Shown here: piece after piece, positions 1-13,233 of the stretch
How the letters are laid out: every line of letters begins with the position of its first letter
How positions within the stretch are numbered: the stretch's first letter is position 1
Virus record (IMG/VR): IMGVR_UViG_2695420747_000007
Location: 1 to 13,233 of that record
Source of the DNA: a virus
Lineage: Duplodnaviria > Heunggongvirae > Uroviricota > Caudoviricetes
Reading direction: 5' to 3' (one strand)
Length of the DNA: 13,233 nucleotides
Notes under the pieces: generated by a model
Databases searched by the model: none
The model's input: only the letters and a program-made list of their open reading frames with translations
What the model was told of the DNA's origin: nothing
Program-made: the position numbers and the translations under genes

Positions 1-115
1 CCCGCCACCAGCACACCGTCAGCCAGCACTGACATTATCCGGCTGCTGCAATGCCATTCACAAAAACAGTAAGCAATCACTTTTTACCGTAACAGGTGAT
101 AATCCAGATATGTAT

Positions 116-469
116 CTACCCCAGATGAGTAATCCGAAGTTCATCCATACCACAGGTCCTGGCTATTCTGTTGTACTCCTGAACAAGAGCAAATAATTCT
201 GAATTAGCCACCATGAACTCATCGCAAACCCTCTGTATAGCATCACTATTCAGAATAATAACGTCTCTTCCCGAAAGACGATCAGGAGTACAGAACAAAA
301 CTGTCAAACGGCTGAAGGCCTTTGCTCGTTCTGCATTGACTATATCAATACGCTGCCTAAGGATGAAACACCCCGACGCCTCATCAATATTCACTCTACC
401 CACACCATATGAATGATAAATATTTAATGCTGAAAAAACCATTAGACGGTATAACAAACACTCAATCAA
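116..469 (-). CDS. Hypothetical AT-rich cargo protein (117 aa, copy 1), downstream of the phage tRNAs in the late-transcript direction
   Basis: Open frame in the six-frame track; co-oriented with Q/pR'. Track start at 469 is TTG; first in-frame ATG is at 442; no convincing SD at either. Stop TAG at 116-118. No family recognised. Confidence 0.35.
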   Translation of the reverse strand: MIECLLYRLMVFSALNIYHSYGVGRVNIDEASGCFILRQRIDIVNAERAKAFSRLTVLFCTPDRLSGRDVIILNSDAIQRVCDEFMVANSELFALVQEYNRIARTCGMDELRITHLG

Positions 470-579
470 TACTTAACAGAACTTTTATTTTTGACAAACA
501 TATAATATTTTCAACAAGATCCTGAGCCAGGTATATTTCAGTATAAGGCTCTGCCGGAAGGAATCTGGAAGAATGAATA

Positions 580-656
580 TGGCGCGCTGTACTGGATTCG
601 AACCAGTGACCGATTGCTTAGAAGGCAATTGCTCTGTCCGGCTGAGCTAACAACGC
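580..656 (-). tRNA. tRNA-Arg (anticodon UCU), copy 1
   Basis: Reverse complement folds as a cloverleaf: acceptor GCGTTGT/ACAGCGC, D-stem GCTC/GAGC, anticodon stem ATTGC/GCAAT with loop CTTCTAA, T-stem ACTGG/CCAGT with loop TTCGAAT, encoded CCA. Resembles the argU/argO class from memory. Confidence 0.9.
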
Positions 657-690
657 TGAATACCGATAATGGACCGCCATCGGGGACCCG

Positions 691-706
691 CCCCCCCCCC
701 CCCCCC
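691..706. repeat. C16 homopolymer between the two tRNA genes (C5 in the second copy at about 2350-2354)
   Basis: Read directly: 16 consecutive C here versus 5 at the equivalent position of copy 2. Confidence 0.9.
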
Positions 707-767
707 GCACCAACAACCCTGTTATCGTGTCGTCTGCTCTTCCTGATAAGCTCATGGCGGTTTGTGA

Positions 768-843
768 TGGTGGCCCTTGCTGGATTTGAACCAGCGACCT
801 GGCGATTATGAGTCGCTCGCTCTCACCACTGAGCTAAAGGACC
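768..843 (-). tRNA. tRNA-Ile2 (anticodon CAU, ileX/ileZ-like), copy 1
   Basis: Reverse complement GGTCCTTTAGCTCAGTGGTGAGAGCGAGCGACTCATAATCGCCAGGTCGCTGGTTCAAATCCAGCAAGGGCCACCA: anticodon loop CTCATAA, T-loop TTCAAAT, encoded CCA. Near-identical to my recollection of E. coli ileX; CAU could formally also be Met. Confidence 0.85.
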
Positions 844-882
844 GGGAGCAGAATAATAACGGTCCGTAATTAATTCCGCAAT

Positions 883-904
883 AAAAAACCCGCTCGGTGG
901 CGGG
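883..904 (-). terminator. tR'-like intrinsic terminator, copy 1
   Basis: On the minus strand a GC hairpin (CCCGC-loop-GCGGG, plus 889-904) is followed by a T6 run (plus 883-888), placed after the pR'-like promoter. Confidence 0.65.
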
Positions 905-953
905 TTGTAGAAACTCTTCTAACGTCAGGTATAAAAAGCCCATCGTTATGACG

Positions 954-981
954 AATTTACCACAGATTCCGGAAAAATCAA
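954..981 (-). promoter_or_regulatory. Late promoter pR' with qut/pause region, copy 1
   Basis: Minus strand TTGATT-16-TAAATT followed by CGTCATAACGATGGGC. The TAAATT...AACGATGGG arrangement matches the lambda pR'/pause element as I recall it. Confidence 0.6.
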
Positions 982-986
982 CCTTG

Positions 987-1756
987 TTACCTAGTTACCT
1001 TTTTTAACTGCCGCTCAGCCCATGCTTCTTCAATATCAAACCGGGTCACCAGCGCATCATAGAATTTCTTAACTGTTTTTTCCCATGACGCGCGTGTTAT
1101 CTGGTTTGTCACCTCGCATATAGCATTAAATGCCTCCGTTGATGGTAGTCTTTCATAGCCACGACCACCACAACGCTGGCAGTCTCTGATAACAGGCATA
1201 CCACGTTTTACCGACTCTTCACGGTGAATGGCGACACCACGCCCACGGCAATCCTTACAGACGGTGGAAACCTCACCCTTTCCGCCACACTCCGGACAGG
1301 CAACTTTTACCACCTCCCTGACTTTTTTCCATTCTTCCCAGTAAGACGGATACACACCTTTCGTACACTTTGCCCATACCGGCGGCTTACCATCCGGATA
1401 CTGGACCTTGTTTGTAAAAACTACGCTTTCAATAAATTTTTCCCCATAGCAACAAGGGCACTGCTTTTTACTCGCTGCGCTGCGGGCATAATCCTCAAAA
1501 GCGTACGAAGCCATAATGCGCATCACTACCGGTTTTATTTCTGCCGGAAGTTTTCTCAACGCCGCCACACGATCGCACCGACTGAGTGCATAATCTGCCA
1601 GTAATTCTGTTGCCCGCGCCCTGTCATTCATACTGATGCCCATCTTCCCCAGGAACGCAGAAAACCCCATCTCAGCCCGATTCTGTGTCATGCCCTGCGC
1701 GGCCATCACATCAGTGATACTCAGCGCATCTTTTGACGTTGAGGCCGATGCATCGG
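987..1756 (-). CDS. Q-like late antiterminator, copy 1, 5'-truncated by the N gap
   Basis: Paralogous to the 273-aa ORF at 4175-4996. Multiple CxxC zinc-ribbon motifs (CPCC, CPEC, CKDC, CQRC); sits directly upstream of pR'. The frame runs open from 1709 up to the N run at 1757. Confidence 0.7.
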
Positions 1757-1763
1757 NNNNNNN
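1757..1763. other. Assembly gap (7 N)
   Basis: NNNNNNN in the sequence; flanks match mid-Q on one side and the ORF117 downstream flank on the other. Confidence 0.95.
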
Positions 1764-1784
1764 GGTGATAATCCAGATATGTAT

Positions 1785-2141
1785 CTACCCCAGATGAGTA
1801 ATCCGAAGTTCATCCATACCACAGGTCCTGGCTATTCTGTTGTACTCCTGAACAAGAGCAAATAATTCTGAATTAGCCACCATGAACTCATCGCAAACCC
1901 TCTGTATAGCATCACTATTCAGAATAATAACGTCTCTTCCCGAAAGACGATCAGGAGTACAGAACAAAACTGTCAAACGGCTGAAGGCCTTTGCTCGTTC
2001 TGCATTGACTATATCAATACGCTGCCTAAGGATGAAACACCCCGACGCCTCATCAATATTCACTCTACCCACACCATATGAATGATAAATATTTAATGCT
2101 GAAAAAACCATTAGACCGTATAACAAACACTCAATCAACAC
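1785..2141 (-). CDS. Hypothetical AT-rich cargo protein (copy 2 of the 117-aa ORF)
   Basis: Near-identical to 116-469 (one R/G difference near the N-terminus). Track start at 2141 is GTG. Confidence 0.35.
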   Translation of the reverse strand: MLIECLLYGLMVFSALNIYHSYGVGRVNIDEASGCFILRQRIDIVNAERAKAFSRLTVLFCTPDRLSGRDVIILNSDAIQRVCDEFMVANSELFALVQEYNRIARTCGMDELRITHLG

Positions 2142-2248
2142 TTAACAGAACTTTTATTTTTGACAAACATATAATATTTTCAACAATATCCTGAGCCAGG
2201 TATATTTCAGTATAAGGCTCTGCCGAAAGGAATCTGGAAGAATGAATA

Positions 2249-2325
2249 TGGCGCGCTGTACTGGATTCGAACCAGTGACCGATTGCTTAGAAGGCAATTG
2301 CTCTGTCCGGCTGAGCTAACAACGC
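2249..2325 (-). tRNA. tRNA-Arg (anticodon UCU), copy 2
   Basis: Identical sequence to the tRNA at 580-656. Confidence 0.9.
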
Positions 2326-2425
2326 TGAATACCGATAATGGACCGCCATCGGGGACCCGCCCCCGCACCAACAACCCTGTTATCGTGTCGTCTGCTCTTC
2401 CTGATAAGCTAATGGCGGTTTGTGA

Positions 2426-2501
2426 TGATGGCCCTTGCTGGATTTGAACCAGCGACCTGGCGATTATGAGTCGCTCGCTCTCACCACTGAGCTAAAGGGC
2501 C
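2426..2501 (-). tRNA. tRNA-Ile2 (anticodon CAU), copy 2, variant 3' end
   Basis: Same cloverleaf as 768-843 but the 3' terminus is encoded as TCA instead of CCA (plus tga at 2426-2428) and acceptor position 3 is C instead of T, turning a G-U pair into G-C. Confidence 0.8.
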
Positions 2502-2550
2502 GGAAGCAGAATAATAATGGTGCGTAATTAATTCTGCAATCTCATCCGTT

Positions 2551-3600
2551 TCAAACGATTAAATCCTGAACTTCCCTGACTGTCTGCTCAAAACGTCCGG
2601 TCTCCAGTTCAACGCCAATCGCACGACGCCCGAGCGCCAGTGCAGCTTTTACCGTTGAACCTGAGCCCATAAAAAAATCTGCAACCAGGTCACCCGGACG
2701 ACTGCTTGCGCTGATTATCTGCTGCAGCATTTCTGCCGGTTTTTCGCACGGATGTTTCCCGGGATAGAACTGCACCGGTTTATGTGTCCACACATCCGTG
2801 TACGGCACCTGCGCCGTCACACCAAAATACCGCCGCAGATGCTTATATTCACTCTGCAGCTCCACATACTGCCGGTTCAGTGACGTATACGTATCCACCA
2901 GCTGGTGGTGGGGCTTTTCCAGTTCACCGCGCTGATGTTTCTCTTCTGCCACCCGGGCAAACAGCGACTGTAATTTCAGATAATCGCTTTCGTTCGGTAG
3001 CTGCCACTGACTGGCACTGAACCAGTGCGACACCATGTTTTTCTTTCCTGTGGCATCTGCAATCTGTTTTGCCGTTATCCCCAGGGCCACGCGCGCATCA
3101 CGAAAGTAAGAAATCAGCGGGGCCATCACATGCTGTTTCAGTGCACTGCCCTTCGCCGCATACCCGGCATCTTTCGGACGATACGGCCCCTGATAATGTT
3201 CCGCGAACAGAATGCGCTCTGTGGCGGGGAAATACGCCCGCAGGCTTTCCTTGTTGCATCCGTTCCAGCGTCCGGACGGCTTCGCCCAGATAATATGGTT
3301 CAGCACACTGAAGCGTTCACGCATCATGATTTCGATATCAGATGCCAGGCGATGACCACAGAACAGGTAAAGACTTCCGACAGGTTTCAGCACCCGCCAG
3401 AACTGCGCCAGACACTGGTCCAGCCACTTCAGGTAATCATCGTCGCCCTTCCACTGGTTATCCCAGCCCTCAGGCTTCACTTTAAAGTACGGCGGGTCCG
3501 TGACTATCAAGTCAACAGAATTTTCGGGTAACGACCGGATAAATTCCAGGCAGTCGACGTTGATTAACTCACAACTGGATATTTTTACAGTGTTAAGCAT
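2551..3600 (-). CDS. Orphan DNA methyltransferase, beta-class (N6-adenine or N4-cytosine), 349 aa
   Basis: N-terminal motif IV DPPY (IVTDPPYF) precedes C-terminal motif I FxGxG (DFFMGSGST), the beta-class permutation. ATG at 3600 with weak SD. No adjacent endonuclease gene. Confidence 0.85.
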   Translation of the reverse strand: MLNTVKISSCELINVDCLEFIRSLPENSVDLIVTDPPYFKVKPEGWDNQWKGDDDYLKWLDQCLAQFWRVLKPVGSLYLFCGHRLASDIEIMMRERFSVLNHIIWAKPSGRWNGCNKESLRAYFPATERILFAEHYQGPYRPKDAGYAAKGSALKQHVMAPLISYFRDARVALGITAKQIADATGKKNMVSHWFSASQWQLPNESDYLKLQSLFARVAEEKHQRGELEKPHHQLVDTYTSLNRQYVELQSEYKHLRRYFGVTAQVPYTDVWTHKPVQFYPGKHPCEKPAEMLQQIISASSRPGDLVADFFMGSGSTVKAALALGRRAIGVELETGRFEQTVREVQDLIV

Positions 3601-3692
3601 GGATCATTAAGCCTGTCTCTGATAGGCTCATTCTGCTTTTGCGCAAAGCAGTGGGCCTGAGGTTTGCTTGTGAACCCAACGCATGAGCAGAT

Positions 3693-3723
3693 GGCTGGTG
3701 GGTGCCCCTAACACCCACCAGCC
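3693..3723. promoter_or_regulatory. Perfect 12-bp inverted repeat (GGCTGGTGGGTG-N7-CACCCACCAGCC) in the methyltransferase 5' region
   Basis: Read directly; arms are exact reverse complements and no T-tract follows on either strand, so it is not an intrinsic terminator. A second near-palindrome CTGCTTTTGCGCAAAGCAG lies at about 3632-3650. Confidence 0.4.
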
Positions 3724-3740
3724 GCCCATTTACCACAAAT

Positions 3741-3763
3741 AAAAAAGCCTTCACTGCGGAAGG
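3741..3763 (-). terminator. Intrinsic terminator after the small wHTH ORF
   Basis: Minus-strand hairpin GCCTTC-loop-GAAGGC (plus 3747-3763) followed by T6 (plus 3741-3746); overlaps the stop codon of the upstream ORF. Confidence 0.5.
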
Positions 3764-3948
3764 CGTCTGTAACAACCGAACTGATAGTCTGCCAGACCCG
3801 CCATAACCAGCTGGGTCAGTATTAACTGGCAGCGTTCGCGTGAAAGGTAAGTATTCTGCGCTATCTCCCCGACTGTCGCCGGTTCGGTAACGCTTAATTC
3901 ATTAAACACCACTCTGGCGGTTTCTGTCATATCCTGCTGTTTTAGCAT
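3751..3948 (-). CDS. Small putative winged-helix protein (65 aa)
   Basis: ATG at 3948 with SD-like AAGGGA 7 nt upstream; the track's longer ORF extends this upstream. Sequence MLKQQDMTETARVVFNELSVTEPATVGEIAQNTYLSRERCQLILTQLVMAGLADYQ looks like a small wHTH/FeoC-like fold. Inference only. Confidence 0.5.
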   Translation of the reverse strand: MLKQQDMTETARVVFNELSVTEPATVGEIAQNTYLSRERCQLILTQLVMAGLADYQFGCYRRLPQ

Positions 3949-4070
3949 GTCTTTTTCCCTTTTCCGGTTAACGTGACACACCAATAACTCTTGTCGAAAA
4001 AGCCAGCAAGCTGAAAGACAGGTATTCACCGCCACCAGCGCGTTTACTGTACTGACGCGATTTCAGTCAT

Positions 4071-4092
4071 AAAAAACCCGCCAGGTGGCGGG
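4071..4092 (-). terminator. tR'-like intrinsic terminator, copy 2
   Basis: Minus-strand hairpin CCCGCC-ACCT-GGCGGG (plus 4077-4092) followed by T6 (plus 4071-4076). Confidence 0.7.
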
Positions 4093-4141
4093 GTGTAAAA
4101 AATCTTCTAACGTCAGGCATAAAACGCCCATCGTTAGAGCA

Positions 4142-4169
4142 AATTTACCACAGATTCGGGAAAAATCAA
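4142..4169 (-). promoter_or_regulatory. Late promoter pR' with qut/pause region, copy 2
   Basis: Minus strand TTGATT (plus 4164-4169), 16-nt spacer, TAAATT (plus 4142-4147), then TGCTCTAACGATGGGCG; lies just downstream of the Q stop codon. Confidence 0.65.
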
Positions 4170-4174
4170 CAACA

Positions 4175-4996
4175 CTATCGCGTTACCCTCTTTAACTGCC
4201 GCTCCGCCCATGCCTCTTCAATGTCAAACCGAACCACCAACGTATCGTAAAAGCGTTTCACTGATTTTTTCCACGTATCAAGCGTGATAGCACTCGTCAC
4301 TTTGCATATGGCATTAAATGCCTCCGTTGATGGCAGCCTTTCACAGCCACGACCACCACAACGCTGGCAATCTCTGATAACAGGCATACCACGTTTTACC
4401 GACTCTTCACGATGAATGGCGACACCACGCCCACGGCAATCCTTACAGGCGGTGGAAACCTCACCCTTTCCGCCACACTCCGGACAGGCAACTTTTACCA
4501 CCTCCCTGACTTTTTTCCATTCTTCCCAGTAAGACGGATACACGCCTTTTGTGCACTTTGCCCACACTGGTGGCTTACCATCCGGATACTGGATCTTGTT
4601 TGTAAAAACCTCGCTTTCAATAAATTTTTTTCCGTGACAGCAGGGGCACTGTTTTTTGCTCGCCGCGCTACGGGCATAATCTTCAAACGCATACGAAGCC
4701 ATAATGCGCATCACTACCGGTTTTATTTCTGCCGGAAGTTTTCTCAACGCCGCCACACGATCGCACCGACTGAGTGCATAATCTGCCAGTAATTCTGTTG
4801 CCCGCGCCCTGTCATTCATACTGATGCCCATCTTCCCCAGGAACGCAGAAAACCCCATCTCAGCCCGATTCTGTGTCATGCCCTGCGCGGCCATCACATC
4901 AGTGATACTCAGCGCATCTTTTGACGTTGAGGCCGATGCATCGGTCAGGCCAGGGGATTTTGGGGAGTAGTATTTCGGTAAATCTTCCAGTTTCAT
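4175..4996 (-). CDS. Q-like late antiterminator (273 aa), zinc-ribbon type
   Basis: ATG at 4996 overlaps the rusA stop (ATGA). Four CxxC pairs. Position immediately upstream of the lambda-like pR'. Resembles the QuuQ/YdfT class from memory. Confidence 0.8.
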   Translation of the reverse strand: MKLEDLPKYYSPKSPGLTDASASTSKDALSITDVMAAQGMTQNRAEMGFSAFLGKMGISMNDRARATELLADYALSRCDRVAALRKLPAEIKPVVMRIMASYAFEDYARSAASKKQCPCCHGKKFIESEVFTNKIQYPDGKPPVWAKCTKGVYPSYWEEWKKVREVVKVACPECGGKGEVSTACKDCRGRGVAIHREESVKRGMPVIRDCQRCGGRGCERLPSTEAFNAICKVTSAITLDTWKKSVKRFYDTLVVRFDIEEAWAERQLKRVTR

Positions 4997-5367
4997 TTTT
5001 TGACCTGCTCTTCATGCATTATGGGGTAAATCTTCACCCCCATACGTCCACCAGATACTGGCTGACCACGAACGATATTGATTTCATCAAACTGCTCATC
5101 GTCCATTAACACTCCCGCATGCGTCAGCGCATCCAGCGGTGCTTTCAGGATATTGTCCAGGTCGCGACGACGCTTATCCGGTGGCTCTGCAATCACCTTT
5201 ATCGCCAGCCTTCCGGACAGGCTTAATTTCAGCCGCTGCTGGCGAACAATAAGCGCCACAGCACGGCGATAACGCTTTCCCTCCTCCGAGATAAAATATG
5301 TGCTGCCACGGCGTCGCCAGTAAGTGTTCACCGTCGGCGGGTAAGGTAAAACCAAATCTATGAGCAT
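4993..5367 (-). CDS. rusA: Holliday-junction resolvase RusA
   Basis: 124 aa; conserved RusA-like segment PPDKRRRDLDNILKAPLDALTHAGVLMDDEQ; ATG at 5367 with SD AGAGGTGA. Confidence 0.9.
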   Translation of the reverse strand: MLIDLVLPYPPTVNTYWRRRGSTYFISEEGKRYRRAVALIVRQQRLKLSLSGRLAIKVIAEPPDKRRRDLDNILKAPLDALTHAGVLMDDEQFDEINIVRGQPVSGGRMGVKIYPIMHEEQVKK

Positions 5368-5379
5368 CAGTCACCTCTT

Positions 5380-6429
5380 TTACCCAAGCACGCCAGTTGC
5401 AAAGGCGTGATCAAGAAAACGAAAAATTAAATCAACCTGAGAACCATGCTTTTCTTCGAACGCCAGCGGATCCGCATGAAGCTCGTTGTGATGCTCCCGA
5501 CACAGCGGTAGCGTGAAAATATCGTGAGATTTTGTCCCCATTCCGCCCTGACCATGACCAATCAGGTGATGGGGATCGTCGGCTGGCTTACCACAACACG
5601 CACACGGCTGTGTCTTCACCCAGCGTGTGTATTTCTCGTTAACCCAGCGGCGACGTTTAGGTCGTTTCATGAAAGATTCCGGAGACTCAGGATCAACGGC
5701 AATGCTGACCACCGTCTTTTCCTGTGGTGGGTTCTGTTGCTGGTGGGCGTGAGGCAGCGGCGCAAGATTTTTTGTGCGCTGTTTCAGTATGCTGGTGGCG
5801 GTCTGCTCTCCCGGTACGATGTCGCTTTCACGGTACATTGAGCGGATTTTTTCCGCACGCAACCCCAGCGAACGACGTAATACCGCTTCCGGTAGCGCGT
5901 CCGCCAGCTGATTGCGGACCGCCCACCAGGATAATTCAGCCAGAGATAATTCACGCTCCTGCGTACCGCTTATTGCGTGACCGATGACGTCAATCATCCA
6001 TGCTGACAGGTTTTGATGAGCAAGTTGCTCGAGTGATTCGGATGTCTGGTCACGCAGCTGGTTGTCGCAGTGCCAGCACAACACCATTGCGCCGGTACCA
6101 TATCGGTGAATAACGGTTTCGCTGTGATGATAATCGCCGTGTGGCCACTGGCAGGATTTAATATGGCGCAACAGCCAGTCAGACAATGCACCAGCACCAC
6201 CAGCAGCACGAATTACCCGTGCGTTACTGAAAAACGGCAGCAATGTTTTGTCTTCCACCAGCGGCTGGCGAACGGCAGGAACGACCCCGGACGGCATATT
6301 ACGCATGCTTTTCGGTTCCGGCTCCACCAGTACCCGGGTATTGTGGAATACCGGCATGGATTCACGGCCCGGCTTAACGACCACCAGCCCGAGTTCCGGT
6401 ACCAGAACAGGTCGAAGTAATACCCGCAC
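5380..6429 (-). CDS. YdfU-like DUF968 protein with C-terminal Cys/His (HNH-like) motif
   Basis: 349 aa; GTG start at 6429 with GGAGG 4 nt upstream; C-terminal CACCGKPADDPHHLIGHG...CREHHNELH; adjacent to Q as ydfU is to quuQ in the Qin prophage (recalled synteny). Confidence 0.7.
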   Translation of the reverse strand: MRVLLRPVLVPELGLVVVKPGRESMPVFHNTRVLVEPEPKSMRNMPSGVVPAVRQPLVEDKTLLPFFSNARVIRAAGGAGALSDWLLRHIKSCQWPHGDYHHSETVIHRYGTGAMVLCWHCDNQLRDQTSESLEQLAHQNLSAWMIDVIGHAISGTQERELSLAELSWWAVRNQLADALPEAVLRRSLGLRAEKIRSMYRESDIVPGEQTATSILKQRTKNLAPLPHAHQQQNPPQEKTVVSIAVDPESPESFMKRPKRRRWVNEKYTRWVKTQPCACCGKPADDPHHLIGHGQGGMGTKSHDIFTLPLCREHHNELHADPLAFEEKHGSQVDLIFRFLDHAFATGVLG

Positions 6430-6430
6430 G

Positions 6431-6709
6431 TTACCTCCAGATGCGTTGCTGGAATGTACGGGACGGACGCGGTGGGCGTTCGGAGTAAGGCAATCTGACT
6501 GAGATTATCCAGTGACGGTAGTCGAGGCTAAGGGCTTTTTTAACCTCGTATCCGCGCCTGCGGTAACACTGAATTATCCATTCAGCCTGCTCTTCAGTGC
6601 ATGGTGGATGCTGGAACCAGTCCGATTTGAATGCATGAAAACGCCGTCCGCACCTGCTGGCAAAGACGGCAGAATCATCAGAATTGTGTAATTTGGTATC
6701 GTGCGCCAT
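6431..6709 (-). CDS. Hypothetical nin-region protein (92 aa from the ATG at 6709; the track ORF extends to a TTG at 6820)
   Basis: Open frame whose stop (TAA 6431-6433) sits 1 nt before the GTG of the downstream gene. Start uncertain, no clear SD. Occupies the position of rem in Qin but identity is not established. Confidence 0.4.
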   Translation of the reverse strand: MAHDTKLHNSDDSAVFASRCGRRFHAFKSDWFQHPPCTEEQAEWIIQCYRRRGYEVKKALSLDYRHWIISVRLPYSERPPRPSRTFQQRIWR

Positions 6710-7070
6710 CGGTTGTCTCTGCTGGCGCAGCAGGTGCCAGTTGTTCAGGCTGGCGTATAAAGTATAAATAAACTGGTTCCAGTGTAAAGCCCCTACATTA
6801 ATGGAATAAAAGTCAAACAACAGATTGTTGGGATAAACACAACGCTTATTATTAAAAGCGATTAGATAAATTAAATTTTAATGTTATGCAATTTTACCAG
6901 ATCACCATAACATCTCGTTTGAAACCACCGAAACAACAACCATATCAATATTGATTATGTTAAAGTGAGTAAATATGGAAAACAACAAATCTGCACATTA
7001 CGCTCCTTTTTTATCTGTGATACTTTTTGTTTTATGCTGTGTGTGGGCATTATTTTTATAAAAATATTTA

Positions 7071-7097
7071 CAGATAAAATAAACCCGCCGAAGCGGG
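7071..7097 (-). terminator. hok mRNA 3' terminator / fold-back region
   Basis: Minus-strand hairpin CCCGC-TTCG-GCGGG (plus 7084-7097) followed by a T-rich run. The 3' segment CCTCAACGCACCC (plus about 7105-7117) is complementary to the predicted hok mRNA 5' end GGGTGCTTGAGG. Confidence 0.55.
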
Positions 7098-7167
7098 TTA
7101 AGCGCGGGTGCGTTGAGGATGCCTGACACATCAGAGGCGGCGAGGGATTTCTCCCTCGCCAAGTCTC

Positions 7168-7323
7168 TTACTCCTCAGGTTCGTAGACTGTGAAGACAGC
7201 GACCTCCATCTGGCCGGTTCGGATTCGTACCTCGCAGAGGTCTTTCCTCGTTACCAGTGCCGTCACTATGACGGTTAAACAGATGACGATCAGGGCGATT
7301 AACATCGCCTTTTGCTGCTTCAT
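7168..7323 (-). CDS. hok: Hok-family type I toxin (51 aa)
   Basis: MKQQKAMLIALIVICLTVIVTALVTRKDLCEVRIRTGQMEVAVFTVYEPEE, near-identical to HokD/RelF as recalled. SD AAGGAG 9 nt upstream. An in-frame upstream ATG at 7380 gives a 70-codon mok-like frame. Confidence 0.9.
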   Translation of the reverse strand: MKQQKAMLIALIVICLTVIVTALVTRKDLCEVRIRTGQMEVAVFTVYEPEE

Positions 7324-7336
7324 AGCCTGCTTCTCC

Positions 7337-7365
7337 TTGCCTTTCGGCACGTAAGAGGCTAACCT
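7337..7365 (+). promoter_or_regulatory. sok: sok antisense promoter
   Basis: Plus strand TTGCCT-17-TAACCT, colinear with the plasmid R1 sok promoter (TTGCGC-17-TATCCT) as I recall it; lies inside the mok-like leader, antisense to hok. Confidence 0.5.
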
Positions 7366-7371
7366 AGATTT

Positions 7372-7445
7372 GCCGTTCATAGATTGAGCCTCAGATTAAT
7401 GTTAAGCGTCTTGCAGGACGCGTAATGTTAACTGGGGCTTTTCTC
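7372..7445 (+). ncRNA. sok: Sok-like antisense RNA (approximate extent)
   Basis: Inferred from the promoter above and the usual Sok length of about 65 nt; the 3' end is not defined by a clean terminator. Confidence 0.35.
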
Positions 7446-7498
7446 TATCTGCCTTTGGTGTTCATGCCTGAGGCAGATAGCCTCAAGCACCCGCAGTC

Positions 7499-7526
7499 AT
7501 TCTACTTAACTAAGATTTCCCCGCAA
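7499..7526 (-). promoter_or_regulatory. hok/mok promoter
   Basis: Minus strand TTGCGG-16-TAGAAT; the predicted 5' end GGGTGCTTGAGGCTATCTGCCTCAGG resembles the R1 hok mRNA 5' end as recalled. Confidence 0.5.
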
Positions 7527-7581
7527 ACCGTTTTTGTCCAGCACAATAAATATCCAACTAAACCAATGGAGTTCGCTGTAT

Positions 7582-7761
7582 TTACCGCCAGTATTCAATG
7601 CACATGACCGCCATGAACACCCCTAAAAAAAGGGCATTTATATATCCAAATATTAATATCAAAACATCAACTTTTTCCATATACCTTGCTGTGAAGATGA
7701 TGGGCATACATGATACGAACAACCAGAACGCAACAAACAAAAACTGCAATGCGTTTTTCAT
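7582..7761 (-). CDS. Small hydrophobic two-helix membrane protein (59 aa)
   Basis: ATG at 7761 preceded by AGGAGG (4-nt spacer); MKNALQFLFVAFWLFVSCMPIIFTARYMEKVDVLILIFGYINALFLGVFMAVMCIEYWR. The track ORF extends to a GTG at 7800. Confidence 0.5.
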   Translation of the reverse strand: MKNALQFLFVAFWLFVSCMPIIFTARYMEKVDVLILIFGYINALFLGVFMAVMCIEYWR

Positions 7762-8192
7762 TATTCCTCCTACAATCAATGTGCAATTACATTTAAACAC
7801 ACCTCAATTTGGCCGGACATATAAATATCTAAACTAGAAAAAATCACTTACATAGCGTTACAAACTCTTTAGTCTAAAGGTTCATCGTAAAACACTCCCC
7901 ATACTTATCAGTCCGTTCCGCGCCAGGTAGCTTATTGCCTTATCTGGCAACCTATAATCAGGTTTCCGCTTTTTCAGTTGGCTGGTCGTTTAACCGACAT
8001 AGTTAACCCATTAATCTAGTTGCCGGATGTTGGTGGATTTTCGCGTTTTAGTTGTTCATAAAAGTGCACAGCTTTAACCAGTTCTTCTGATGTAACCAGG
8101 GCTGGTGAGGCAGTGAATAAGGCCTGAATTTGATAGTTCGGCCTGTCGTTACAATCCTCTTTTTTCGGTACATATTTCCAGTCAACAGACCA

Positions 8193-8303
8193 CTACTTCT
8201 CCTGAAAGTCCGTAACGCCTTTTTTCACGTAGCGATATCGCCATGCCACTGGTTTTGCTTGCTCCGCCGTTTCATACCCTTCCTGATAATTAATCTCGCT
8301 CAT
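8193..8303 (-). CDS. Small ORF (36 aa) ending in TAG, with 58 further in-frame sense codons down to 8016
   Basis: ATG at 8303 overlaps the upstream stop (ATGA). After the TAG at 8193-8195 the frame continues protein-like (…PALVTSEELVKAVHFYEQLKRENPPTSGN) with no start codon of its own. Confidence 0.4.
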   Translation of the reverse strand: MSEINYQEGYETAEQAKPVAWRYRYVKKGVTDFQEK

Positions 8304-8476
8304 TCATCGCCCCACTCATCACAATATGCTTCGACCGGATTTTTTCCTGCTTCATAATCATCACGCCATGCTTCAGCATCAGCAGCACTGCCACCACGTA
8401 ACTCTGCATAGTCCATTAACAGTTCATGCCATTTTTCAAAACTGACGTTGTATTTAGTTGAACCAAAATCAGCCAT
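8300..8476 (-). CDS. Small protein (58 aa), translationally coupled
   Basis: Not in the track (under 60 aa). ATG at 8476 with purine-rich SD GAGGAA; overlaps the upstream stop (ATGGCTGA) and the downstream start (ATGA). MADFGSTKYNVSFEKWHELLMDYAELRGGSAADAEAWRDDYEAGKNPVEAYCDEWGDE. Confidence 0.5.
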   Translation of the reverse strand: MADFGSTKYNVSFEKWHELLMDYAELRGGSAADAEAWRDDYEAGKNPVEAYCDEWGDE

Positions 8477-8651
8477 TTTGCTCTTCCTCTTCGTCTTTTA
8501 TTTCGTGATATGAGTAATTGCAGTAGTTAAAGAAAATATCTTTTGCTTCGTCATGTATTTCATCAGGCGTCGCATCAGCATCCACTTCGAATTCATCCTC
8601 GAAATCTCCACCAGCCATTCCCGTTTCAATAATTATTTTGAACTTTCGCAT
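8469..8651 (-). CDS. Small highly acidic protein (60 aa)
   Basis: ATG at 8651; Asp/Glu-rich (…GDFEDEFEVDADATPDEIHDEAKD…KDEEEEQNG); first gene of a coupled three-gene set. Confidence 0.45.
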   Translation of the reverse strand: MRKFKIIIETGMAGGDFEDEFEVDADATPDEIHDEAKDIFFNYCNYSYHEIKDEEEEQNG

Positions 8652-8744
8652 TTCACTACCGCCCTTTCGGGTGGCCTCCTGCTGTTCTGAGGGTGCAGAA
8701 ATCCCTCCGGTTAAGGATTAAATTTTTAACAGTGCTAAATTTAA

Positions 8745-9101
8745 TTATTCAGTTTTGGATTTTGTCACCCTGCGTATCCACGCTTTCCCGTTACGCTCAA
8801 TCTGAATTAGCTTTTCTATATTTTTTCGCCTTTCCCGTTCCTCCTGGCGCAAGAGCCTTACATCATCTGCCAGTCTGGTTTCTCTTTTCGCCACAGAGAG
8901 CATCCAGTCAAATGGCTCCACAACTGCACCGCAGATTTTACAGCGGACCTGACGCTCTTTTTCGTCAACCCGGACAGAAGCGTGATGGCAATATGGTCTT
9001 TCCGATGGCTCATAAAGAAAATTAACCTGATTACGAGGGTCATCCTCTTTTATCGGAAATAAAACGATATTGCTTAACTAATCCTCTGGTTTTATTTCCA
9101 T
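8745..9101 (-). pseudogene. ORF interrupted by an in-frame TAG at codon 8 (about 118 codons total); Cys/His-containing protein
   Basis: ATG at 9101 with SD AAGGAG 6 nt upstream; codons ATG GAA ATA AAA CCA GAG GAT TAG, then 110 open in-frame codons (…ERPYCHHASVRVDEKERQVRCKICGAVVEPFDWM…) to TAA at 8745-8747. No alternative start between the TAG and the Cys motif. Confidence 0.4.
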
Positions 9102-9158
9102 GCTCCTCTCCTTTGATGCGAATGCCAGCGGCAATTGAAGCCTGATAGCTAATTTCAC

Positions 9159-9581
9159 TCACAGTACCGCCTCCTGAAAATTACCCTGATAGAAAGCCAG
9201 TACACGCTGCATAGCTTCGCTCTTCCGGCACTCGCGACAGATTATATTCAGGCGCCTGTCGTAGCGGCGTATTTCTCCGTCTGGTAATGACCAGATTAGG
9301 TCCGGATCAACCGCAGATGGTTTCTTCGGCTTTGCCCTTGAGAGCTTTTTACGGGCATTTTGCCAGTCCTTACGCGCCTGTTCAGACGGGAATAACCCGT
9401 AACCAGAGTTGTATACATCGCCACTGGCAACCAGCTCTCTGGCCAGAACACTCATCAGATATCTTGTTGCCCCAGTTTTAGTTTCCAGTTGTCGTAACGT
9501 CTCGCGCCCACTTTGGCGTACGAGTTCAACAACCTGCCCTTTAATTTTTTCCCGCTCTTCTTGTGTAAAAACTTTTGCCAC
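9159..9581 (-). CDS. Hypothetical replication-module protein (140 aa)
   Basis: GTG start at 9581 with AGGAGG upstream; follows the O-like gene. No family recognised. Confidence 0.6.
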   Translation of the reverse strand: MAKVFTQEEREKIKGQVVELVRQSGRETLRQLETKTGATRYLMSVLARELVASGDVYNSGYGLFPSEQARKDWQNARKKLSRAKPKKPSAVDPDLIWSLPDGEIRRYDRRLNIICRECRKSEAMQRVLAFYQGNFQEAVL

Positions 9582-9621
9582 AAGCCCTCCTGAAAATTAC
9601 CTCATGACCAGAAATTAACAC

Positions 9622-10692
9622 TTACCCCCTGAAGCCCGGCGGAATTTCGTTATCCGGTTCAGAAATATGATTCACACAACGCTGGTTGTTCGTGCCGCTT
9701 ACCGGGAGCAACCAGGGGTTCTCAAAATTCCGGTCCGGTCCAAAAAACGTCGTCGCTCGCTGAACAAATTCCGTTCCCGTTTTCCCGGTAGCCGCCAAGT
9801 ATCTTGCGTAACGCCTCACGCCATCCAGCATGGCCTCTGGTGGCACCCCCTCGCGTAATCTGGCCTTCCAGGCACTGAAAGCGGATTTCTTCGGGTTTGC
9901 TCCGGCACGCAACGGGTACTCCCGCCAGACCTGTTCGAACACATCCGGATAATCCACTCGTCCCACAGACTGCCCGGTGTTTTCCGGGACTACCCGATCG
10001 GCTTCCCGCTGAATGGCGGAATCGGCTTCGGGCTGCTGCAGTTGGTGTGATTGCTCCGGCCTTGCGGTCATCACCTGCTGCACAGCGCCCGAATCGGCTT
10101 TCAGCGCATACGCTGAATCGGCTTCCGGTGTCGTGCCTGCTGGCTGACCAAGATTGACGGTCTGAACATCCCCTGCCTGGTTCGTGGCGTTTTTTACGCC
10201 ATGGACCATAGTGTTTTGATCTTCTTGATCTGTATCTTTATCTGTATCTTTATCTGTCGTGACTCGTCGTGACATATGCGTGACATTTCGTGACGCGCCG
10301 TGACAATCGCCATTTTGTTCCCGCTTTCTTTCCCTCTCTCGCTGCGCCCTCTTGCGCTCTGCAGGAGATTTTGCGGTTTGCGAAATATTGCCGTTGTCCT
10401 CTTTAAGCACCTGGCGTTTTTCCCATCCAGTGATTAAATCACCATCAAGTACCCGCCCCTGCATCGTCTGCAAAATTGAATCAATTACCTCTTCTGTCAC
10501 GTCGAGCGCACTTGCCAAATCTTCTGTCGTGACCTCAATGTGACCTCGCGTGACATTTCGTGACGCGCTCACCAGGAGGTGGATATACACTGCCATCACT
10601 GTTGCAATTGGCTGCCCTGACACCCTGGCAATTGTTCGCCACTTAGGGTCATTTGGCATGTCATGCCATAATCTGAGCCAGGCGTTAGCCAT
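9622..10692 (-). CDS. Phage replication initiation protein, O-like (replisome organizer), 356 aa
   Basis: ATG at 10692 with SD GAGGTG (the track starts 2 codons earlier at a GTG). Position after cro-like/YdaT-like genes. N-terminus MANAWLRLWHDMPNDPKWRTIARVSG… resembles replisome-organizer N-domains. Contains the phased repeats listed below. Confidence 0.65.
   Translation of the reverse strand: MANAWLRLWHDMPNDPKWRTIARVSGQPIATVMAVYIHLLVSASRNVTRGHIEVTTEDLASALDVTEEVIDSILQTMQGRVLDGDLITGWEKRQVLKEDNGNISQTAKSPAERKRAQRERERKREQNGDCHGASRNVTHMSRRVTTDKDTDKDTDQEDQNTMVHGVKNATNQAGDVQTVNLGQPAGTTPEADSAYALKADSGAVQQVMTARPEQSHQLQQPEADSAIQREADRVVPENTGQSVGRVDYPDVFEQVWREYPLRAGANPKKSAFSAWKARLREGVPPEAMLDGVRRYARYLAATGKTGTEFVQRATTFFGPDRNFENPWLLPVSGTNNQRCVNHISEPDNEIPPGFRG
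10258..10304. repeat. Iteron-like array 1: five CGTGAC repeats at 10-11 bp phasing, next to an AT-rich GATC-containing stretch (10211-10257)
   Basis: CGTGAC at 10258, 10268, 10279, 10289, 10299. Upstream is the direct repeat ATCTGTATCTTT x2 and two GATC sites. Confidence 0.5.
10496..10564. repeat. Iteron-like array 2: CGTGAC/TGTGAC repeats at 10-11 bp phasing plus one inverted copy
   Basis: Copies at 10528, 10539, 10549, 10559 and inverted GTCACG at 10496. The 21-mer GCGTGACATTTCGTGACGCGC is identical in both arrays (10279-10299 and 10549-10569). Confidence 0.5.
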
Positions 10693-10763
10693 ACTCACCT
10701 CTTTTGATACCGAATCTTTTTACTCACAAATTGCCGGAAGCGATCCGGTATGAATATTGCGAG

Positions 10764-11189
10764 TCAATGCACAGCCACAATATTTCCTGCAGGGCCACCA
10801 CGATTCATCTGGTTGAAACCAGCGATCGCCACTGCGACAAAATCATCAGCGTCTCTCACCAGTCGTTCCCGCGTCTCCACTAGTTCCCGAAAATAGGCTG
10901 AGCTATGACTGCGCATTCGGGCCACCAGCAGAGGTGGCATTGCTTTTTCGATAGCTGGTAACAACGCCTGAATTTTTTTAACCGCATCAGGGGTGTCTTT
11001 CTCCACCCAGCGGAAAATTTTCTGAGTATTGCGAGCCAGGGCTTCCGGATGGCTGTCGTCATACAGTTCCGGGAACGTCATTCCCAGCTCGAAATACGCT
11101 TTGGTAATTTTCGCAGCCGGTACTTTTTCGCCGTCCGGATGCGCCCAGGCATTCATCGCCATGCGGATGTGTTCATGCTTGATTTTCAT
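10764..11189 (-). CDS. YdaT-like protein (141 aa)
   Basis: ATG at 11189 overlaps the cro-like stop (ATGA); SD GGGAG. N-terminus MKIKHEHI matches my recollection of Rac YdaT; position equals cII/ydaT in lambdoid maps. Confidence 0.5.
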   Translation of the reverse strand: MKIKHEHIRMAMNAWAHPDGEKVPAAKITKAYFELGMTFPELYDDSHPEALARNTQKIFRWVEKDTPDAVKKIQALLPAIEKAMPPLLVARMRSHSSAYFRELVETRERLVRDADDFVAVAIAGFNQMNRGGPAGNIVAVH

Positions 11190-11440
11190 GAATCAACTCC
11201 CATCAGCTTTTTCGTAGTAGTTTTATTCCTGCCAATAGTTAAAATTGCATCGGCAGAAAATAATCCGTTTGATGCAAGAGCGATTTTTTCAGCGTAATTT
11301 GTTTCGCCGGTATATTCTGTGCGAGGCAATTTTCCGTTATCCATCCATTTATAGATTGCTCTTTGGCTGACACCACAAACGTCGGCCACAACAGCAACGC
11401 GAACAGTTTTGATTACATCTTCAAGTGTTTTCTGGTTCAT
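11186..11440 (-). CDS. Cro-like / YdaS-like HTH regulator (84 aa)
   Basis: ATG at 11440 with SD GAGGGTGA (the track ORF extends upstream to a non-ATG start). HTH-like segment VADVCGVSQRAIYKWMDNGKLP; divergent from the repressor gene. Confidence 0.65.
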   Translation of the reverse strand: MNQKTLEDVIKTVRVAVVADVCGVSQRAIYKWMDNGKLPRTEYTGETNYAEKIALASNGLFSADAILTIGRNKTTTKKLMGVDS

Positions 11441-11456
11441 ATCACCCTCACAATGT

Positions 11457-11512
11457 GAACTTTGAGTACATGCTATAACAGAACTGACAGTACATTCAAG
11501 AGCGAATATCAT
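11457..11512. promoter_or_regulatory. OR-like divergent promoter/operator region
   Basis: Two 15-bp direct repeats, GAACTTTGAGTACAT (11457-11471) and GAACTGACAGTACAT (11481-11495). Plus-strand CTGACA-17-TATCAT ends 7 nt before the repressor ATG (leaderless-type). Minus-strand TTGAAT...TATAGC for the cro-like gene. Confidence 0.5.
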
Positions 11513-11519
11513 TGAACTT

Positions 11520-11939
11520 ATGGTTCATGAAGATAAAGCGCGTAAAGAGTTCGCCAGTAGGCTTGCGCTAGCCTGTGAAAACGCTGGTTATGAACAACAT
11601 GGAAGGCAGGCAGAAATTGCCCGTCGAATGAAATTAACACCAAAAGCGGTTAGCAAATGGTTTAATGGCGAAACAATTCCTCGCCGGGAGAAATTAAGGG
11701 AATTAGCAACACTAATAGGAACAACACCAACCTATCTTTTGGGAGAGGATACAGAAGAAAGTGGACAGGTACGTTTCTATCAGGAGTTAAATCCAAGACA
11801 AAAAATCATCATTGACCTTCTGGACGAGCTCCCTGACAGTGAGACAGATGAACTTTTAAAAACTCTTGAAGAGAAAAAACAGAAGTACAATGCAATTTAC
11901 GAAGAGTTAGCACGAAAGAAAAAACAAAAAGCCTCTTAA
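11520..11939 (+). CDS. DicA-family prophage repressor (139 aa, XRE-type HTH, no peptidase domain)
   Basis: HTH segment MKLTPKAVSKWFNGETIPRREKLRELATLIGTTPTYLLG; C-terminal helical tail. No SD before the ATG. Architecture matches DicA/RacR-type repressors as recalled. Confidence 0.75.
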   Translation: MVHEDKARKEFASRLALACENAGYEQHGRQAEIARRMKLTPKAVSKWFNGETIPRREKLRELATLIGTTPTYLLGEDTEESGQVRFYQELNPRQKIIIDLLDELPDSETDELLKTLEEKKQKYNAIYEELARKKKQKAS

Positions 11940-12014
11940 ACCAGCATAAATCCGGTAGCGCCTTCCTCCGGGTTTGTGCTTCACTTTATCCCATCTCATT
12001 TTTTTACACACAAA

Positions 12015-12059
12015 ATGTACTAAATGTACTTTACAACAATGAACACAAAGTACATTATA
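12015..12059 (+). promoter_or_regulatory. OL-like operator/promoter region downstream of the repressor gene
   Basis: ATGTACT at 12015 and 12024 and inverted AGTACAT at 12049, the same heptamer as in OR; candidate promoter TTTACA-(17-18)-ATTATA reading rightward. Confidence 0.4.
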
Positions 12060-12236
12060 TACCTGCCACCCACCCCGCCCCACAGAATGCAGGGCAATAC
12101 TTCGAGTTACCAGGCAGTGGTCAGGGGTTAAGTAGCCAGCCCGAGGCGTAAGAACATGACGGCAGGGTTCAACTTTAATAACTATGCAGCAGGTTTTTGT
12201 TCCGCTACCCCGGCGTTAAGGGGAAATGAGGTCAGC

Positions 12237-12392
12237 ATGGATACTATCAATCTTGGCAACAGCGAATCTCTGGTATGTGGCGTGTTCCCCAACCAGGACG
12301 GTACGTTCACCGCAATGACGTATACCAAAAGCAAAACGTTTAAAACCGAAAATGGTGCCCGTCGCTGGCTGGAAAGAAACTCAGGTGAGTGA
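12237..12392 (+). CDS. YdfA-like small protein (51 aa)
   Basis: ATG at 12237 with GAGG 5 nt upstream; MDTINLGNSESLVCGVFPNQDGTFTAMTYTKSKTFKTENGARRWLERNSGE; resembles Qin YdfA from memory. The track ORF starts at an upstream ATG (12156). Confidence 0.55.
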   Translation: MDTINLGNSESLVCGVFPNQDGTFTAMTYTKSKTFKTENGARRWLERNSGE

Positions 12393-12393
12393 T

Positions 12394-12969
12394 ATGGATT
12401 TCGACACAATCATGGAAAAGGCTTACGAAGAATACTTCGAAGGCCTTGCCGAAGGCGAAGAAGCTCTCAGCTTCAGTGAGTTTAAACAGGCACTCAGAAT
12501 AAGAATGTGCTCTCACAATGACGCGGAGCACAAATATGAGAAGCAAAATCAGACCGCAGAAAATTTTGTTCTGGAACCCGGAGAAACGCTTTTCAAAATT
12601 CCCGTTACGTGCCCCATTTGCGGTTTTACATCAGAAGAACTTGACGACTCCTGTAACAATCAGGAAACAACCAAGTATGTCGAAGATGATACCGAGTGCG
12701 CACGAAGAACGATTATATCCACGAGTCCAAACTCCAGGGCCAATAAATCTCACTTTGAGAGGGTGATTAATCCACTCCCCCAAACCAATAAAAAAGATGC
12801 CGGAGGACAAAAAACCCAATGGAACAACGGGATATCTGTCAAAAAAAGACGTTCCATTAAAGACAAACAACGCAGCGCCAACAACTGTAAGCGCTTTATA
12901 CCAGTAATCAATTTTCATGTTCTTAAGCGGATTTATTGGTGGTTGCGACATTGCTTAATGAATCCTTAA
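12394..12969 (+). CDS. Hypothetical early-left operon protein (191 aa), CPICGF motif; C-terminal part low-complexity
   Basis: ATG at 12394 is 1 nt after the YdfA-like stop, with SD AGGTGAG. The N-terminal part is protein-like; the last 60 or so codons are A-rich and basic and may be fortuitous. Confidence 0.4.
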   Translation: MDFDTIMEKAYEEYFEGLAEGEEALSFSEFKQALRIRMCSHNDAEHKYEKQNQTAENFVLEPGETLFKIPVTCPICGFTSEELDDSCNNQETTKYVEDDTECARRTIISTSPNSRANKSHFERVINPLPQTNKKDAGGQKTQWNNGISVKKRRSIKDKQRSANNCKRFIPVINFHVLKRIYWWLRHCLMNP

Positions 12970-13233
12970 AACTGTGGTGATTTTAAGGATACCACCTCGC
13001 CTGACGTGGTTAAAAGCAGGCACACAACACGAAAGCGCACGGCGAAGTTCGTCTCACTGTACGGTGTCGTTAAATTTAATTCGACCGTGCGCTTCCGGTT
13101 GTGGCAACCCGCAAAATGGCGCGGCGGTAAGTATGGCGGGGTTATTCCTTCCCCGTTGAGGACACCGGGTTGTCAGGTTGACCATACGCTTAAGTGACAA
13201 CCCCGCTGCAACGCCCTCTGTTATCAATTTTCT

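Follow-up and report, generated by a model that had tools for sequence, protein, structure and literature searches.

The window, which is the whole stretch of 13,233 nt that was analysed, contains one lambdoid late-control interval twice, in divergent copies (95-1756 and 1764-4944) that have the same orientation and only a run of 7 Ns between them. This run, located at exactly 1757-1763, is the sole ambiguous sequence in the window. The genes of both copies lie on the minus strand and comprise ORF117, tRNA-Arg, tRNA-Ile(CAU), tR', a pR'-like site and the antiterminator gene Q. Lysis and morphogenesis genes fall outside the window; in two finished E. coli prophages, those of strain 53 and FDAARGOS_1259, the module is followed by holin, lysozyme, Rz-type lysis and terminase genes. 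Two prophage types are distinguished below, where P1 type (A type) corresponds to the left copy, or version A, and P2 type (B type) to the right copy, or version B. The features are as follows.

1-80, minus strand: DUF3927-family gene, 5' part; left flank, P1 type (PGAP CDS of L001, L013, L014 and L015 maps here)
116-469, minus strand: ORF117 copy 1, function unknown (ORF list; phrog_2873, E = 1.7e-70)
580-656, minus strand: tRNA-Arg (anticodon UCU) copy 1 (ARAGORN; Rfam RF00005)
691-706, left copy: C16 homopolymer between the tRNA genes (G16 on the transcribed strand)
768-843, minus strand: tRNA with CAU anticodon (tRNA-Ile in PGAP) copy 1 (ARAGORN, Rfam, PGAP)
906-887, minus strand: tR'-like intrinsic terminator copy 1 (terminator scan; conserved with copy 2)
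954-981, minus strand: pR'-like promoter candidate copy 1, just past the Q stop codon (TTGATT, 16-nt spacer, TAAATT)
987-1756, minus strand: Q antiterminator, P1 allele, cut by the gap, residues 19-273 kept (PF03589, E = 4.9e-49)
1757-1763, no strand: run of 7 N, very likely a contig/scaffold join; junction absent everywhere searched
1764-2116, no strand: head of the right contig, 353 nt identical to 95-447
1785-2141, minus strand: ORF117 copy 2 (ORF list; left/right alignment)
2249-2325, minus strand: tRNA-Arg (UCU) copy 2 (ARAGORN; Rfam RF00005)
2426-2501, minus strand: tRNA-Ile (CAU) copy 2 (ARAGORN and Rfam calls at 2429-2501)
2541-4068: segment of 1,528 bp in the right copy only, between tRNA-Ile and tR'
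2551-3600, minus strand: DNA methyltransferase, 349 aa (PF01555, E = 2.1e-44; PHROG DNA methyltransferase families)
3751-3948, minus strand: hypothetical protein, 65 aa (phrog_331; also hypothetical in the L002 annotation)
4092-4077, minus strand: tR'-like intrinsic terminator copy 2 (terminator scan)
4142-4169, minus strand: pR'-like promoter candidate copy 2, assigned from position (conserved block in the left/right alignment)
4175-4996, minus strand: Q antiterminator, P2 allele, complete, 273 aa (PF03589, E = 2e-49)
4692-5700: shared zone of about 1 kb (Q 5' part, rusA, start of the DUF968 gene), near-identical to both prophage types (difference maps)
5700-13233: early region of a Qin-like P1-type prophage, natural continuation of the left copy (strain 53 comparison; collapsed match)

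The two copies of the late-control interval

Positions 95-882 aligned to 1764-2540 with 97.2% identity over 788 columns (E = 0), and 881-1756 to 4069-4944 with 90.7% identity over 879 columns (E = 0). These alignments bear out the preliminary description, made from the sequence alone, of a divergent duplicate of the late-control module across the gap. The bounds it gave for the copies (98-1756 and 1764-4996) were exact beside the gap, at 1756 and 1764, while the left copy was found to start at 95 and the homology of the right copy to end at 4944. ORF117, both tRNAs, tR' and Q had been named as common to both copies, and all were located twice. ORF117 gave no Pfam match, and PGAP leaves it unannotated in both finished genomes for which a region table was examined.

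The differences described between the copies were likewise recovered. The methyltransferase insertion, with the PF01555 gene inside it, is limited to the right copy. The C16 tract of the left copy has as its counterpart C5 at 2360-2364; across four finished genomes the length of this tract was C12, C16, C8 and C7. The two tRNA-Arg copies are identical. The tRNA-Ile copies differ in the acceptor stem and at the 3' end, where the left copy has U3.G70 and an encoded CCA and the right copy has C3-G70 and UCA in place of CCA.

Left and right Q are 93% identical, with matches to the Q-like families phrog_127 and phrog_25523. Dense divergence extends to 1122/4310, which fits the mosaic breakpoint previously placed near 1130/4315, and a second, sparser patch was found at 1356-1503/4544-4691. 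Positions 4945-4996 hold Q codons 1-17 and one base of codon 18 and have no counterpart in the left copy, so the N run cuts Q 52 nt from its start and not in the middle of the gene, as had been supposed.

Both tR'-like terminators lie shortly downstream of Q and have a GC-rich stem followed by a T run. The presence of pR' in both copies, also claimed earlier, held as far as a block of TTGATT, 16-nt spacer and TAAATT is conserved in each. A consensus promoter scan flagged neither candidate because only 8 of the 12 consensus positions match, and the promoter assignment therefore stays positional: from their location, the two blocks may be the pR' late promoters.

Comparison with finished prophages and searches for the junction

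When 1757-4944 was removed, the remaining 10,045 nt (1-1756 and 4945-13233) matched complete genomes such as strain 53, OZ121084, E04 and strain 64 as one BLAST piece, with 100% coverage and 99.9% identity, and 127 genomes covered at least 80% of this collapsed sequence. The locus in strain 53 (NZ_CP048359, 2,311,856-2,321,896) is a Qin-like lambdoid E. coli prophage, colinear with 1-1756 plus 4945-13233 at 99.9% identity and sharing with the window the order DUF3927, tRNA-Arg, tRNA-Ile, Q, rusA, DUF968, hokD and a ydaT/DUF977/repressor early region. It has a single late-control interval, without the methyltransferase segment, and the coordinates of the left copy and of 4945 onward abut exactly in the finished genome. 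The left Q DNA is 99.6% identical in strain 53, and only 3 differences separate 4692-13233 from this genome; its poly-C tract is C12, against C16 in the window.

The right copy followed another prophage type. The E. coli prophage of FDAARGOS_1259 (NZ_CP069559) is 99.7% identical to the window over 1764-5400, and likewise to about 5700, and diverges from it beyond that point. Taken singly, the two sides of the gap are thus each colinear with finished genomes, the prophage type being a different one on either side. The best matches of the two copies come from different genomes, without overlap among the top-listed accessions. E. coli genomes that carry the module have it at a median of 2 places, and at up to 15-16.

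The junction as drawn was not recovered. Queried with 407 nt across the gap, none of 5,426 complete E. coli genomes gave a match of at least 80% coverage, and a junction pattern allowing a gap of 0-30 nt, which as a control does match the window itself, found none in viral, species-representative genome and metagenome contig collections. The whole right contig was present in 0 of the 5,426 complete genomes (best coverage 87%). The best-covering genomes listed for it carry an A-type Q region, which at the strain 53 locus goes without the methyltransferase segment. The exact protein of the right Q (Q2) is very common in public assemblies, where it adjoins several different early regions, including the dicB/ydaT type; none of ten fetched Q2-encoding loci matched the window well beyond about 6750.

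Both contigs end in exact repeats at the gap. The last 253 nt of the left contig (1504-1756) equal 4692-4944, and the first 353 nt of the right contig (1764-2116) equal 95-447. Position 94, an A in the window, separates P1-type genomes (A) from P2-type genomes (C). It is the only type-distinguishing site in 1-447, and the right contig begins one base after its equivalent, exactly where a contig of an assembly graph would begin. At the left contig end (equivalent to 4944) no diagnostic variant was found, the nearest being at 4951. The gap length of 7 equals the distance from 4944 to 4951, the next departure of the window from strain 53, and was regarded as a coincidence. A reading of the N run as a mask over real bases was disfavoured, the junction being absent from all finished genomes. 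Within the shared zone the alleles are mixed, with A-type bases at 4938 and 5263 and B-type bases at 4951 and 5043.

Origin of the join

Taken together, the 7-N run is very likely a scaffold or contig join that sets two alternative versions of one prophage interval in series, and not a biological arrangement. The scaffold join of two related prophages that the preliminary description proposed is supported by the separate colinearity of the two sides, the absent junction, the repeats at the contig ends and the 99.9% match of the collapsed sequence: the junction itself is unsequenced, and taking out one copy restores a known arrangement. Judged by sequence comparison, 4945-13233 belongs naturally with the left copy and not with the right one. 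The contig to the right of the gap probably combines both prophage types, passing from one to the other within the shared stretch of about 1 kb, with 4692-5700 as the probable zone of crossover or collapse.

Version A (95-1756) would then belong to the Qin-like prophage of the rest of the window, with 4945 onward as its true continuation, and version B (1764 to about 4691) would come from a second, related prophage with an Stx-phage-style methyltransferase module, resident either in the same genome or in a co-sampled strain. Short reads are reported to mishandle homologous prophage content (PMC10925052). Because identical sequence flanks the two versions on the left and on the right, the assembler may have ended the A contig after 253 nt of the shared right flank and begun the B contig 353 nt within the shared left flank. 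The B contig would probably have run on through 4692-5700 into the early region of the A prophage, after which a scaffolding or contig-ordering step would have put one contig behind the other, with a nominal gap between them. That a scaffolder linked both contigs implies that some pairing or ordering evidence existed, which counts against an artefact.

Two other readings also take the join to be false. It is possible, though we hold it only tentatively, that the right contig is a genuine recombinant, in which an Stx-phage-type methyltransferase/Q late module sits on a Qin-like early region, and that another prophage at a separate site of the genome, with the other Q allele, supplied the left contig. 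Given the extensive mosaicism of lambdoid prophages, the right contig need not be chimeric just because finished genomes lack it; the variety of early regions beside the exact Q2 protein and the mixed alleles of the shared zone point the same way. Against such a recombinant, its combination was found in none of the 5,426 complete genomes and in no fetched contig, and it is the left copy with 4945 onward that finished genomes reproduce at 99.9% identity.

It is rather unlikely that the sample was mixed, with two strains or prophage variants whose assembly-bubble arms were laid out one after the other. The layout is exactly that of a shared flank, arm A, gap, arm B and shared flank, and the lack of overlap between the genomes that best match each arm would agree with it. 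Co-resident related prophages are, however, the norm in E. coli, and since the median is 2 module copies per genome, co-residence is the simpler explanation and at least as likely as a mixed sample. No sign of a metagenomic source was found.

A genuine tandem partial duplication, with both modules following each other in a single prophage and the 7 Ns standing in for a few uncalled bases, is favoured only by the scaffold as drawn, with its same orientation and short gap, and is highly improbable: between the copies there is 3-9% divergence and a 1.5-kb indel, while each is at least 99.6% identical to the allele of another genome, of a separate lineage, and the copies therefore do not stem from a recent duplication; they are neither near-identical nor divergent in the manner expected of descent in place, no junction was recovered in independent assemblies or in any collection searched, and the arrangement would leave Q cut off at codon 18. 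A second phage that integrated by homologous (Campbell-type) recombination was rejected as a route to such a duplication because the copies would be expected to lie a whole phage genome apart, not 1.7 kb.

Consequences and resemblance to known systems

The result is chiefly of use for quality control and adds no new biology. Anyone who accepted the scaffold as drawn would see the Q/tRNA late-control module duplicated and a Q gene truncated, and would count too many phage tRNAs and antiterminators; the right-hand contig may mis-link an Stx-phage-type methyltransferase/Q module to a Qin-like early region. In annotation pipelines and when prophages are compared, positions 1757-4944 are best handled as an alternative allele that does not form one contiguous prophage with the rest. 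Were the junction real, which we consider extremely doubtful, a single prophage would hold one late-control unit after another: directly downstream of a complete Q2 and methyltransferase unit would lie a Q1 lacking its 5' end, with pR', tR' and tRNAs, and late transcripts would run into two terminators and two sets of the tRNAs.

All the components belong to familiar Qin-like and Stx-phage-like modules. FDAARGOS_1259, Stx2-converting phages and phiP27 share with the right copy the order Q, small ORF, DNA methyltransferase, tRNA-Ile and tRNA-Arg; the Stx2 and phiP27 phage records have about 87-92% identity with the window over the shared segments, and the window, unlike Stx2-converting phages, has no stx genes. 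In the closest finished genome (L002) the tRNA-Ile ends in CCA, whereas the right copy of the window has UCA. The arrangement as a whole resembles the short-read scaffolding artefacts that arise at homologous prophage repeats, with the same repeat-borne contig ends, a join by an N run and the alternative versions placed in series.

Anatomy of the two copies

The seven Ns at 1757–1763 are the sole ambiguous run in the window, and the same interval is present on both sides of them. The preliminary description of a divergent duplicate across this gap was borne out by two BLAST-level matches, 95–882 against 1764–2540 (97.2% identity, E = 0) and 881–1756 against 4069–4944 (90.7% identity, E = 0). 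Its boundaries were revised: the left copy starts at 95 rather than 98, and homology in the right copy stops at 4944 rather than 4996, so the gap cuts Q merely 52 nt from its start codon and not in mid-gene as had been proposed. The right copy alone has an additional 1,528 bp (2541–4068). Both copies encode all their genes on the minus strand, transcribed in the following order.

Both copies, minus strand: Q antiterminator (PF03589), first in order
Both copies, minus strand: promoter-like block TTGATT-16-TAAATT after Q, conserved between copies
906–887 (left) and 4092–4077 (right), minus strand: intrinsic terminator after the promoter-like block
Right copy only, minus strand: 65-aa ORF (phrog_331) after the terminator
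Right copy only, minus strand: DNA methyltransferase (PF01555) after the 65-aa ORF
Both copies, minus strand: tRNA with CAU anticodon, named tRNA-Ile by PGAP
Both copies, minus strand: tRNA-Arg(UCU) after tRNA-Ile
116–469 and 1785–2141, minus strand: ORF117 (phrog_2873, E = 1.7e-70; PHROG family of unknown function), last in order

The putative pR' was flagged by a consensus promoter scan in neither copy and is placed by position alone. ORF117 carries no PGAP annotation in either of the two finished E. coli genomes for which region tables were consulted, and is a putative protein-coding gene.

The differences originally listed between the copies all hold, including the methyltransferase insertion. 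The homopolymer tract between the tRNA genes is C16 on the left versus C5 on the right, and tRNA-Ile carries U3.G70 and an encoded CCA on the left versus C3-G70 and UCA on the right. Dense divergence, spanning the Q C-terminus and the promoter/terminator region, reaches 1122/4310, and a second, sparser patch covers 1356–1503. Residues 19–273 remain in the left Q, whose identity to the right Q is 93%.

The homopolymer (poly-G on the transcribed strand, between tRNA-Arg and tRNA-Ile) differs in length among otherwise near-identical prophages. Its length is 16 in the left copy (691–706), 12, 16, 8 and 7 in four finished genomes (A-type loci L001 at 12682, and L013, L014 and L015 at 882), and 5 in the methyltransferase-type copies, i.e. 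the right copy (2360–2364) and the FDAARGOS_1259 locus. The late-transcript leader may have a genuinely hypervariable tract here, or sequencing error in homopolymers may account for part of the variation. At the 3' end of the right-copy tRNA-Ile(CAU) (2426–2428, minus strand) UCA replaces the encoded CCA; FDAARGOS_1259, the nearest finished genome, reads CCA here, so UCA is either private to the window sequence or a base-call error.

Prophage types matched by each side

Each side was compared with 5,426 complete E. coli genomes. An uninterrupted match to window 1–1756 (99.6–99.8% identity) occurs in, for example, strain 53 (NZ_CP048359), inside a lambdoid prophage of Qin-like type that has dicB, ydfA, hokD, essD and rrrQ annotated nearby. 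Window 1764–5400 is likewise uninterrupted, at 99.7% identity, but in another type of prophage, e.g. that of FDAARGOS_1259, which carries the methyltransferase segment like the right copy. In difference maps, the right contig (1764–13233) showed about 10 differences from FDAARGOS_1259 over 1764–5700 and strong divergence beyond, while 4692–13233 differed from strain 53 at three positions only. Over approximately 4692–5700, from the 5' part of Q through rusA into the beginning of the DUF968 gene, the two types can hardly be told apart. Window alleles alternate within this shared zone (4938 A-type, 4951 and 5043 B-type, 5263 A-type), a pattern compatible with earlier gene conversion between prophages in one host, or alternatively with a consensus that blends reads from collapsed repeats. 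The module is multi-copy, with a median of 2 places per genome having it and a maximum of 15–16.

The junction and its probable origin

At the strain 53 locus, window 1–1756 aligns up to position 13752 and the alignment of window 4945 onward resumes at 13753. Several finished genomes contained a collapsed sequence of 1–1756 plus 4945–13233 (10,045 nt) as one BLAST piece (coverage 100%, identity 99.9%), and at least 80% of it was covered in 127 genomes. The whole right contig reached at best 87% coverage in any complete E. coli genome; among the matches listed, its best genomes were those matching the collapsed sequence, a type that, as the strain 53 locus shows, lacks the methyltransferase segment. 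Ten further loci encoding the exact Q2 protein (the complete right Q) did not reproduce the right-contig combination. A 407-nt cross-gap query, designed so that the normal arrangement cannot link its halves, was covered to at least 80% in none of the 5,426 genomes. A junction pattern allowing a gap of 0–30 nt had no match in IMG/VR viral contigs, species-representative genomes or JGI metagenome contigs; it did match the window's own N-containing junction.

Short-read contigs stop inside exact repeats. The final 253 nt of the left contig are identical to 4692–4944 and the initial 353 nt of the right contig to 95–447, so both gap ends sit inside exact repeats. Position 94 is the lone site in 1–447 separating the two types: A in strain 53, strain 571, P27_L1_05.20 and CRE444 versus C in FDAARGOS_1259 and locus L008. 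The right contig starts (1764) one base past its equivalent, and an assembly-graph contig would begin exactly after a single-base branch, which points to a break made there by a graph-based assembler. That the gap is 7 long, just as many bases as separate 4944 from the following variant site (4951), is apparently coincidental.

The scaffold join of two related prophages suspected initially is thus favoured, as each copy matches a different prophage type and the junction was found nowhere searched; the 7-N join is very probably artefactual. Version A (95–1756) would be the late-control region that belongs natively to the Qin-like prophage occupying the remainder of the window, and version B (1764 to ~4691) would derive from a second, related prophage with a Stx-phage-type methyltransferase module; both may have been present in one genome, or each may stem from a different strain. 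For both versions the assembler would have continued some hundreds of bases into the flanks they share, the B contig probably being carried through the ~1-kb shared stretch into the early region of the A prophage, before a scaffolding or contig-ordering step lined the two contigs up in series across a token gap. Within the false-join account the right contig may instead be a real recombinant, although a chimera is favoured. A genuine tandem duplication is very unlikely, because the two copies diverge too far, with each more closely related to sequence in other genomes, the collections searched contain no such junction, Q would be truncated at codon 18, and homologous integration of a second phage would space the copies one whole phage genome apart.

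Use of the record and comparison with known phages

If the join is false, as is very probable, there is no real duplication here. The value of the observation is as a quality-control flag: 1757–4944 is best handled as an alternative allele, and on this scaffold alone it is unsafe to trust that the methyltransferase/Q2 module is linked to the early region. Mishandling of homologous prophage content in E. coli by short reads has been described (PMC10925052).

Each component is a commonplace and well-characterised element of lambdoid prophages: a Q antiterminator module (PF03589), rusA, DUF968, a DNA methyltransferase of the late region, and phage genes for tRNA-Arg and tRNA-Ile. The right-copy layout is also present in Stx2-converting and phiP27 phages at approximately 87–92% identity. 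In the early region, five CGTGAC motifs with 10–11-nt spacing and three more about 270 nt off (10258–10304 and 10528–10564) all lie inside a 358-aa ORF (9622–10698, minus strand) adjoining the DUF977 and YdaT genes; by analogy, this array resembles the origin iterons embedded in the replication-initiator gene O of lambda.
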